Shown here: one piece after another, positions 1-15,147 of the stretch
How positions within the stretch are numbered: the stretch's first letter is position 1
How the letters are laid out: each line of letters opens with the position of its first letter
Source: Eledone cirrhosa
Lineage: Eukaryota
Assembly: GCA_964016885.1 (NCBI GenBank)
Contig: OZ024759.1
Location: 19,840,001 to 19,904,000 of the forward strand
Length of the DNA: 64,000 bases
Reading direction: 5' to 3'
Program-made: the position numbers and the translations under genes
Notes under the pieces: model-generated
What the model was told of the DNA's origin: nothing
The model's input: the letters and a program-made list of their open reading frames with translations, nothing else
The model's database searches: none

Positions 1-161
1 ACCAAAACACTGCTTCTCTAAGTAACTCATGCTTAGCATTGCCTTTTAAACCAGCTACTATTCTATTGCACGAGGAAAGTCAATCACACTTGACCTTCTA
101 AACAACATCGCAGCCTTCTTGGCAAAATCACTACTAACCTCCTTGAATTACTGGTATACAT

Positions 162-492
162 TCATCATCCTTATACCAGTAATTGTTTCTACTTTAGGCA
201 CAAGGCCAGCAATTACCCAGTGCATTACTGGTACTTCATTTTATCGACCCCGTAAGGATGAAAGGCAAAGTCAACCTCGGCAGGATTTGAACTCAGATCG
301 TAAAGGGACGTAACTATGCTGGAAAACATGGCGTCCGACCCTGCTTTCCAGCATAGTTACGTCCCTTTACGATCTGAGTTCAAATCCCGCCGAGATTGAC
401 TACGGGGTCGATAAAATAAAGTACCAGTAATGCACTGGGTAATTGCTGGCTTTGTGCCTAAAGTAGAAACAATTACTGGTATAAGGATGATG
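162..492. mobile_element. Foldback (inverted duplicate) SINE family A insertion
   Basis: 163-324 is the reverse complement of ~345-491. Contains B-box GAGTTCAAATC and GGGGTCGATAAAATAAAGTACCAG. AATTACTGGTATA is directly repeated at 146-158 and 471-483. Confidence 0.85.
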
Positions 493-664
493 GATGTCAT
501 CAGGCTGCAGCTATCAAATTACATAGTTTCTGTAATATATATATATATATACATATATATAATGCCATGTCCTATGGATGACCGAGGACTGCCCACCCAA
601 GGTACTGTTACACAGTTAAGTTCATAATGGCGCACATAATAAGCCATTAAGTACACATACACAC

Positions 665-14662: not shown

Positions 14663-15147
14663 TTAACCCTTTAGTATTCACATTACTCTATATATACTAT
14701 TATATTTTCACGTTAAAGGCTTTAGCTCGCATAATTATCTCACATTATATCGAATCTCATAGATTCGATATAATTGTTTCTACTTTTGGCACAAGGCCAG
14801 CAATTATCCCAGTGTATTACTGGTACTTTATTTTATCGACCCCAGAAGGATGAAAGGCAAAGTTAACCTCGGCGGGATTTGAACTCAGAATGGCAAATCC
14901 CGCCAAGGTTAACTTTGCCTTTCATCCTTACGGGGTCGATAAAATAAAGTACCAGTAATACACTGGAATAATTGCTGGCCTTGTGACAAAAGTAGAAACA
15001 ATTATATCGAATCTATGAGATTTTGAAAGTATTTATTTTGAGACCAATACCTTAACATCAGTTTGAGCGACCAGTTACAGCCAGTTTCAACAGAAAGAGG
15101 TAGAGAATTCTGGCTGGTTTTGGCTGGTTTGAACATTAAAGGGTTAA
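14663..15147 (+). mobile_element. piggyBac-like (TTAA) MITE interrupted by a foldback SINE
   Basis: TTAA-CCCTTTAGTATTCA ... TGAACATTAAAGGG-TTAA (12/14 TIR match); second partial copy at 26655-26846. Confidence 0.75.
14753..15022. mobile_element. Foldback SINE family A insertion with TSD
   Basis: 14753-14881 is the reverse complement of 14895-15022; ATTATATCGAATCT is directly repeated at 14744 and 15001. Confidence 0.85.

Follow-up and report, generated by a model that had tools for sequence, protein, structure and literature searches.

Our data show that a SINE in the Eledone cirrhosa genome lies head to head with an inverted copy of itself, and that this copy also contains the TSD and downstream genomic flank of its own insertion site. 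The palindrome, at positions 146-497 of the window (the whole stretch of 64,000 nucleotides that we analysed), is real. Across the genome, there is good support for a class of loci in which self-priming by fold-back accompanied insertion and copying ran through the TSD into the flank. The loop between the two arms of the window locus is antisense relative to the TSD, the opposite of a simple snap-back, which the initial annotation of this DNA had overlooked. We regard the structure as a by-product, and no function is indicated.

Structure of the palindromic insertion

The locus had been described as a series of TSD, reverse complement of flank, TSD and SINE, loop, SINE, TSD and flank, and every one of these parts is present in the sequence (Table 1). 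The feature had been given an end at 492; it actually extends to 497, with a copied flank of 14 nt. The palindrome arms span 158-331 and 339-497, and the loop that separates them sits on a 4-nt stem (328-331 paired with 339-342) that contains one mismatch. A 13-nt TSD repeat together with its reverse complement would be expected by chance with a probability of about 2e-6 over 30 positions. The DNA of the locus folds at -174 kcal/mol (z -36.7), and none of 100 shuffled sequences was equally stable.

Table 1. Parts of the fold-back SINE locus, in window coordinates.
Feature	Positions	Strand	Remarks
Upstream TSD, AATTACTGGTATA	146-158	+	13 nt; exact match to 471-483
Inverted copy of downstream flank	158-171	-	14 nt, copy of 484-497; 1 mismatch; 1-nt overlap with TSD
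Inverted TSD copy	172-184	-	Reverse complement of the TSD
Inverted SINE arm	185-342	-	Longer, loop-bearing arm; family positions 183 to 26; B-box 284-292
Hairpin loop	332-338	-	7 nt; SINE sequence antisense on the + strand
Sense SINE arm	339-470	+	Family positions 37-183; private 15-bp deletion after 400; B-box 378-386
Downstream TSD	471-483	+	Direct copy of 146-158
Downstream genomic flank	484-497	+	Template of the copy in the inverted arm

The SINE at this locus is missing its first 25 nt, with family positions 26-183 in the left arm and 37-183 in the right arm. Both the loop and the longer SINE head are part of the left arm, which adjoins the upstream TSD. The inverted copy is joined straight to the upstream target end with a 1-nt TSD overlap at 158, and it contains 27 nt of TSD and flank from its own site. 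The arms had been reported to differ by substitutions and a deletion of ~15 bp; we counted six transitions, a mismatch at the junction (341) and a deletion of 15 bp confined to the right arm. These transitions and the deletion form the pattern expected for an aged insertion.

The junction between the TSD and the inverted flank is covered by a contig from run X18 (1-192, 0 differences) and one from run X19 (1-187, 1 difference), two runs that may come from the assembly's own sample. None of the contigs listed for positions 1-900 spans the whole palindrome, and contigs from run X1 leave the unique left flank uncovered. The contig placements over 1-900 were dominated by other copies of the SINE and say nothing for or against an empty allele; none was seen.

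The same family has another fold-back SINE in the window, at 14744-15022, with its TSD at 14744-14757 and 15001-15014. Its inverted arm contains the TSD plus ~8 nt of flank, and its loop is likewise flipped. A different repeat is present in three copies at 661-843, 857-1077 and 1232-1460, which are 80-88% alike and one of which is inverted.

The SINE family

The SINE unit is 183 nt long. A search of its own genome returned near-identical copies, many with their own TSD by eye. A 28-nt motif of the tail is matched exactly at 132,470 places. The tail is ATT-type, and in the 45 fold-back loci with strict calls the TSDs are 11-29 nt long and begin at the ATTA tail. Family positions 76-84 match the B-box consensus, and an A-box-like motif lies at 11-22. 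In an RNA fold, the 5' end of the SINE pairs with about positions 85-89. ARAGORN detected no tRNA genes in 15 SINE loci, and Rfam gave no tRNA match to the SINE. The element is a short, high-copy interspersed repeat with a simple-repeat tail and variable TSDs, two features of tRNA-derived SINEs, and its tRNA origin is inferred.

At four loci (L012, L022, L050 and L125), a newer SINE copy has inserted at the TSD of an earlier one, and the resulting tandem copies have a TSD in common. A tandem array at G000:C2:99.08-99.10 Mb (L025-L030) is built of at least 13 units of ~1.29 kb with one SINE copy each.

Fold-back SINEs across the genome

The exact junction of the window locus is found at 9 places in the genome (11 when degenerate letters are allowed), versus 0 for the control, and looser patterns identified 22 head junctions and 4 internal junctions. 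Flanks and copy lengths differ between the exact-junction loci that we examined. Three loci with simple loop orientation (L031, L033 and L034) have the same fold point as the window locus.

Head-to-head tail pairs numbered 176 at gaps of 45-75, 133 at 168-198, 100 at 228-257 and 118 at 258-288, and pairs of one tail variant numbered 57 at 137-167 and 24 at 199-227; the survey covered these gap ranges and a minority of the partial copies. The chance expectation, given at least 132,470 copies, is ~45 opposite-strand pairs per 31-nt distance window. We read 97 of the 176 pairs with gaps of 45-75, and found that the arms abut or overlap in 93. Both arms have their own flank in common over at least 20 nt in 54 of the 97 loci and over at least 40 nt in 34, versus a mean of 0.8 and a maximum of 4 in 300 under shuffled pairing. 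Among 97 loci read from the widest set (gaps 228-288), just 9 have at least 20 nt of flank in common. For the most part, the widest-gap pairs reflect chance and the short-gap pairs do not. In the middle gap ranges, 41 of 59 loci show fold geometry.

Rare variants are common to both arms 14 times, versus 1.0 expected (45 loci; maximum 5 in 1000 shuffles), and gene conversion could partly account for them. By extrapolation, the genome would hold several hundred fold-back events, or a few per thousand copies.

At a typical locus, the arm with the longer head runs into the tail, TSD and true flank, and the inverted copy abuts an intact upstream TSD. This copy may end within the SINE or within the TSD, or may extend beyond the latter by 2-245 nt. 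Copying past the TSD into the flank, as first proposed for the window locus, recurs elsewhere, in 24 of 51 simple loci (17 and 7 in two locus sets). We removed L066 from this count, as its apparent 118-nt flank copy is a neighbouring paralogous SINE.

Many fold-backs cluster near the 3' end of the SINE (L178-L274; family positions about 125-150). Among the 97 loci, the 3'-end junctions are 128/141 in 13, 129/143 in 9, and 133/140 and 131/144 in 7 each, and this clustering may be the mark of an early stall of the reverse transcriptase. In L087 and L129 (2 places), a full-length cDNA appears to have folded back where its 5' end pairs, in the manner of an acceptor stem, with positions of about 81-89. 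L167/L168, L208 and L169/L170 are SINE-centred palindromes with ~200-520 nt of common flank, in which the orientation is weakly flipped or gives no clear call. In L191, L200 and L241, extra templated pieces of TSD or flank separate the upstream TSD from the snap-back copy, which resembles polymerase-theta-type joining.

Loop orientation separates simple from flipped loci

The cDNA fold-back path suggested by the initial annotation places the loop, in SINE sense, beside the downstream-primed arm. We found the loop continuous with this arm in 51 of 57 loci with a clear TSD, but not at the window locus: copying through the TSD into the flank stands as a genome-wide class, and the predicted loop orientation is not seen here. 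The six flipped loci are the window locus, the locus at 14744-15022, L252, L274, L323 and L332. Strict TSD calls gave 42 simple and 3 flipped among 143 loci and 9 simple and 3 flipped among 59, tallies that describe the subset with a clear, non-repetitive TSD (92 of the 143 and 47 of the 59 loci gave no strict call). Flipped copies make up 2 of about a dozen family copies in the window, versus a class rate of 7% (4/55).

In all six flipped loci, the inverted block begins at or overlaps the end of the TSD (call slack 20 nt), which ties the event to the insertion site. Both arms reach the SINE end in all six, and none of 22 partial-copy loci, with their short arms of 12-106 bp, is flipped. Arms are longer in flipped loci (median 139 bp versus 79 bp in simple loci; p 0.010; leaving out both window loci gives 0.053). 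The orientation is simple in 13 of 18 loci with arms of at least 120 bp, and L246 (315 bp) and L296 (225 bp) are long simple loci. Two flipped loci have near-identical arms, L274 (0% divergence, arms of only 59 bp) and L252 (1.3%). We rejected a sharp arm-length threshold near 170 bp because the long L246 and L296 are simple and the short L274 is flipped; this idea had come from weak calls (L063, L087, L195, L208 and L213) that stand outside the strict counts.

A proposed origin for the window locus

We give an even chance to the following origin of the window locus, a 5'-truncated SINE: its target-primed cDNA folded back on itself and served as its own primer, which produced the mirror copy, and the centre was inverted later. 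An endonuclease would nick the target, and reverse transcription would reach family position 26. The cDNA 3' end would then pair with itself at three of four bases across the 7-nt loop, and a polymerase would extend it back along the cDNA, across the SINE and the TSD and on into 14 nt of resected or displaced flank. Finally, the new end would join the upstream TSD overhang through 1-nt microhomology, with fill-in keeping the TSD intact. We consider these four steps, from nick to joining at the TSD, highly probable. Since on their own they are contradicted by the loop orientation in the window, one further step is needed: the centre would have been inverted later, through a template switch between strands or through recombination of the two 174-bp arms, a step that commands about half as much of our confidence. 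The enzyme that extends the fold-back may be either the reverse transcriptase or a host polymerase.

For the flipped loci as a group, later spacer inversion is the likeliest cause. Inversion of spacers by inter-strand switching, with long arms favoured, is described in the available text of PMC8604942 and PMC5453318, and the longer arms of flipped loci are in line with it. The near-identical arms of L274 and L252 leave little time for a later inversion and count against this step, as do the two flipped copies within one window, which exceed what the class rate suggests. No unflipped allele was seen.

The weak terminal pairing at the fold is not special, as three of four pairs are possible at 95 of 169 stop points. 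We rejected an RNA hairpin as the cause of the fold point given this wide availability of weak pairing, and positions 26-39 are unpaired in the best RNA fold. We also rejected the left arm as the primed arm with its own TSD, which has no TSD on that side and needs a chance 13-bp inverted target repeat. Assembly of the TSD and flank from SINE-internal words (a TSD 10-mer is found inverted in the SINE) is unneeded with an exact 13-mer upstream.

Alternative explanations

The locus may instead have been flipped at birth, an origin that we find possible though doubtful. Here the snap-back strand would fill in to the cut top strand and be sealed into a hairpin-capped end, or would form a branched junction. 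A cut in the primed strand 14 nt past the TSD would then free a 5' end for joining to the TSD upstream, after which the other strand would be rebuilt. The original cDNA would end on the top strand, and a single event would yield both the order and the orientation seen in the window. The arms that reach the SINE end in every flipped locus, the lack of flipped partial-copy loci, the two flipped loci with near-identical arms and the junctions at the TSD end all agree with such a birth. Its prediction of a 50:50 loop split among loci copying past the TSD from a sealed hairpin failed, however, with 2 flipped versus 18 simple loci (p 0.58 versus non-copiers). The long arms of simple loci L246 and L296 also speak against it, and the short arms of the unflipped partial-copy loci fit later inversion equally well. 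A 1-3-4-2 template switch at a pre-existing full-length SINE, possibly after the endonuclease re-cut the upstream TSD, is improbable. Flank, TSD and SINE would be copied backwards, and a return at position 37 would delete the head. This switch does away with a second step, the window layout is formally an inverted repeat with an inverted spacer as presented in the available text of PMC5453318, and members of this SINE family have re-inserted at TSDs already present (L012, L022 and L125). But point 1 falls exactly at the TSD end in each of the six flipped loci, none of which retains a piece of the SINE head, the fold point is the one used in simple loci L031, L033 and L034, and the copied fragment of 185 nt is long next to the few tens of bases described.

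It is very unlikely that the flipped loop is an assembly error, with a real palindrome whose centre assembly or polishing turned around, or with one chimeric arm. Each arm has its own transitions, the deletion is private to the right arm, the TSD is exact, the left junction appears in contigs of two runs, and most long-armed loci (13/18 at 120 bp or more) are simple. Points in favour of such an error are the lack of a contig spanning the whole structure, the greater frequency of flips in long arms beyond short-read anchoring, and the presence of two flipped loci within one window. Two independent head-to-head insertions could be imagined from the ~45 chance pairs per 31-nt window and from the pairs at gaps of 228-288, most of which have no common flank. 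Neither they, nor twin priming, nor copying of a hairpin master RNA explains the own-site TSD and flank in the inverted arm. These 27 site-specific nucleotides therefore exclude all three, unless the RNA came from the same locus, and we hold this group of explanations to be extremely improbable.

Discussion

How the second strand and the 5' junction form in LINE and SINE insertion is still an open question. This genome is a large natural record of one intermediate, in which the sites of cDNA stalling and folding, the reach of synthesis (2-245 nt past the TSD) and the survival of the TSD can be followed. The record sets limits on the sequence in which second-strand cleavage, resection and joining take place, and it reveals that SINE insertion itself produces near-perfect palindromes with unique DNA. 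The orientation of the loop against the TSD offers an easily read marker, whether of how often spacers invert or of a resolution route not yet described. Such a second route for non-LTR elements, in which the snap-back hairpin would be sealed to the target strand on the downstream side and then opened through a cut in the primed strand, is a tentative suggestion that we think rather unlikely to be correct; ~1/10 of fold-back SINE insertions in this genome, including the window locus, would be its fossils. If this route is true, the primed-strand cut shifts the original cDNA to the opposite strand, and hairpin-capped ends could seed larger palindromes. These observations matter for the genome-wide class and for loop orientation as a marker, rather than for any function of the window copy.

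The window locus works like a TPRT snap-back and departs from it in one defining feature: an inverted self-copy abuts the SINE and is joined upstream, and the loop is not continuous with the downstream-primed arm. In human cells, snap-back is a described class of 5' junction for engineered R2 insertions (PRINT; PMC11371274). According to its available text, the cDNA 3' end primes on the cDNA and the resulting antisense strand becomes attached to the target on its upstream side, as in the class reported here; unlike here, that text describes neither copying through the TSD into the downstream flank nor a flipped loop. In the mostly open-access literature that our searches covered, we met no report of a SINE snap-back that runs past the TSD into downstream flank. 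Fold-back followed by end joining is also described at double-strand breaks in yeast (PMC11724301). In the available text of that study, local fold-back inverted insertions similarly involve fold-back on imperfect microhomology, short synthesis and capture by the other end with 0-5 nt of microhomology, whereas they start from a nuclease break without retrotransposition and most are <14 bp, reaching up to about 150 bp.

Among L1 insertions, a 'foldback inversion' duplicates 52-220 bp of genomic DNA during insertion resolution in four somatic cases, as given in the available text of PMC10191854. That event copies DNA upstream of the target, whereas the window SINE copies the element and its downstream flank. 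L1 twin priming likewise leaves inverted element sequence between intact TSDs (bioRxiv 10.1101/2024.08.27.596794; PMC10760644). The initial annotation had contrasted the window locus with twin priming on two grounds, that the latter inverts without duplicating and that it would not copy the flank. The former does not always hold, as the available portion of the bioRxiv report gives an internal duplication in 17% of 5' inversions. The latter is right: in twin priming both pieces are RNA-derived, and the inverted part cannot contain TSD or flank; at the window locus, the inverted part is not purely RNA-derived. Finally, 1-3-4-2 template switching and spacer inversion, as described in the available parts of PMC5453318 and PMC8604942, produce an inverted repeat with an inverted spacer, the arrangement found at the window locus, with spacer flips favouring long arms. 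The events described there are short and unrelated to insertion, whereas the switch point in the window lies at the end of the TSD.
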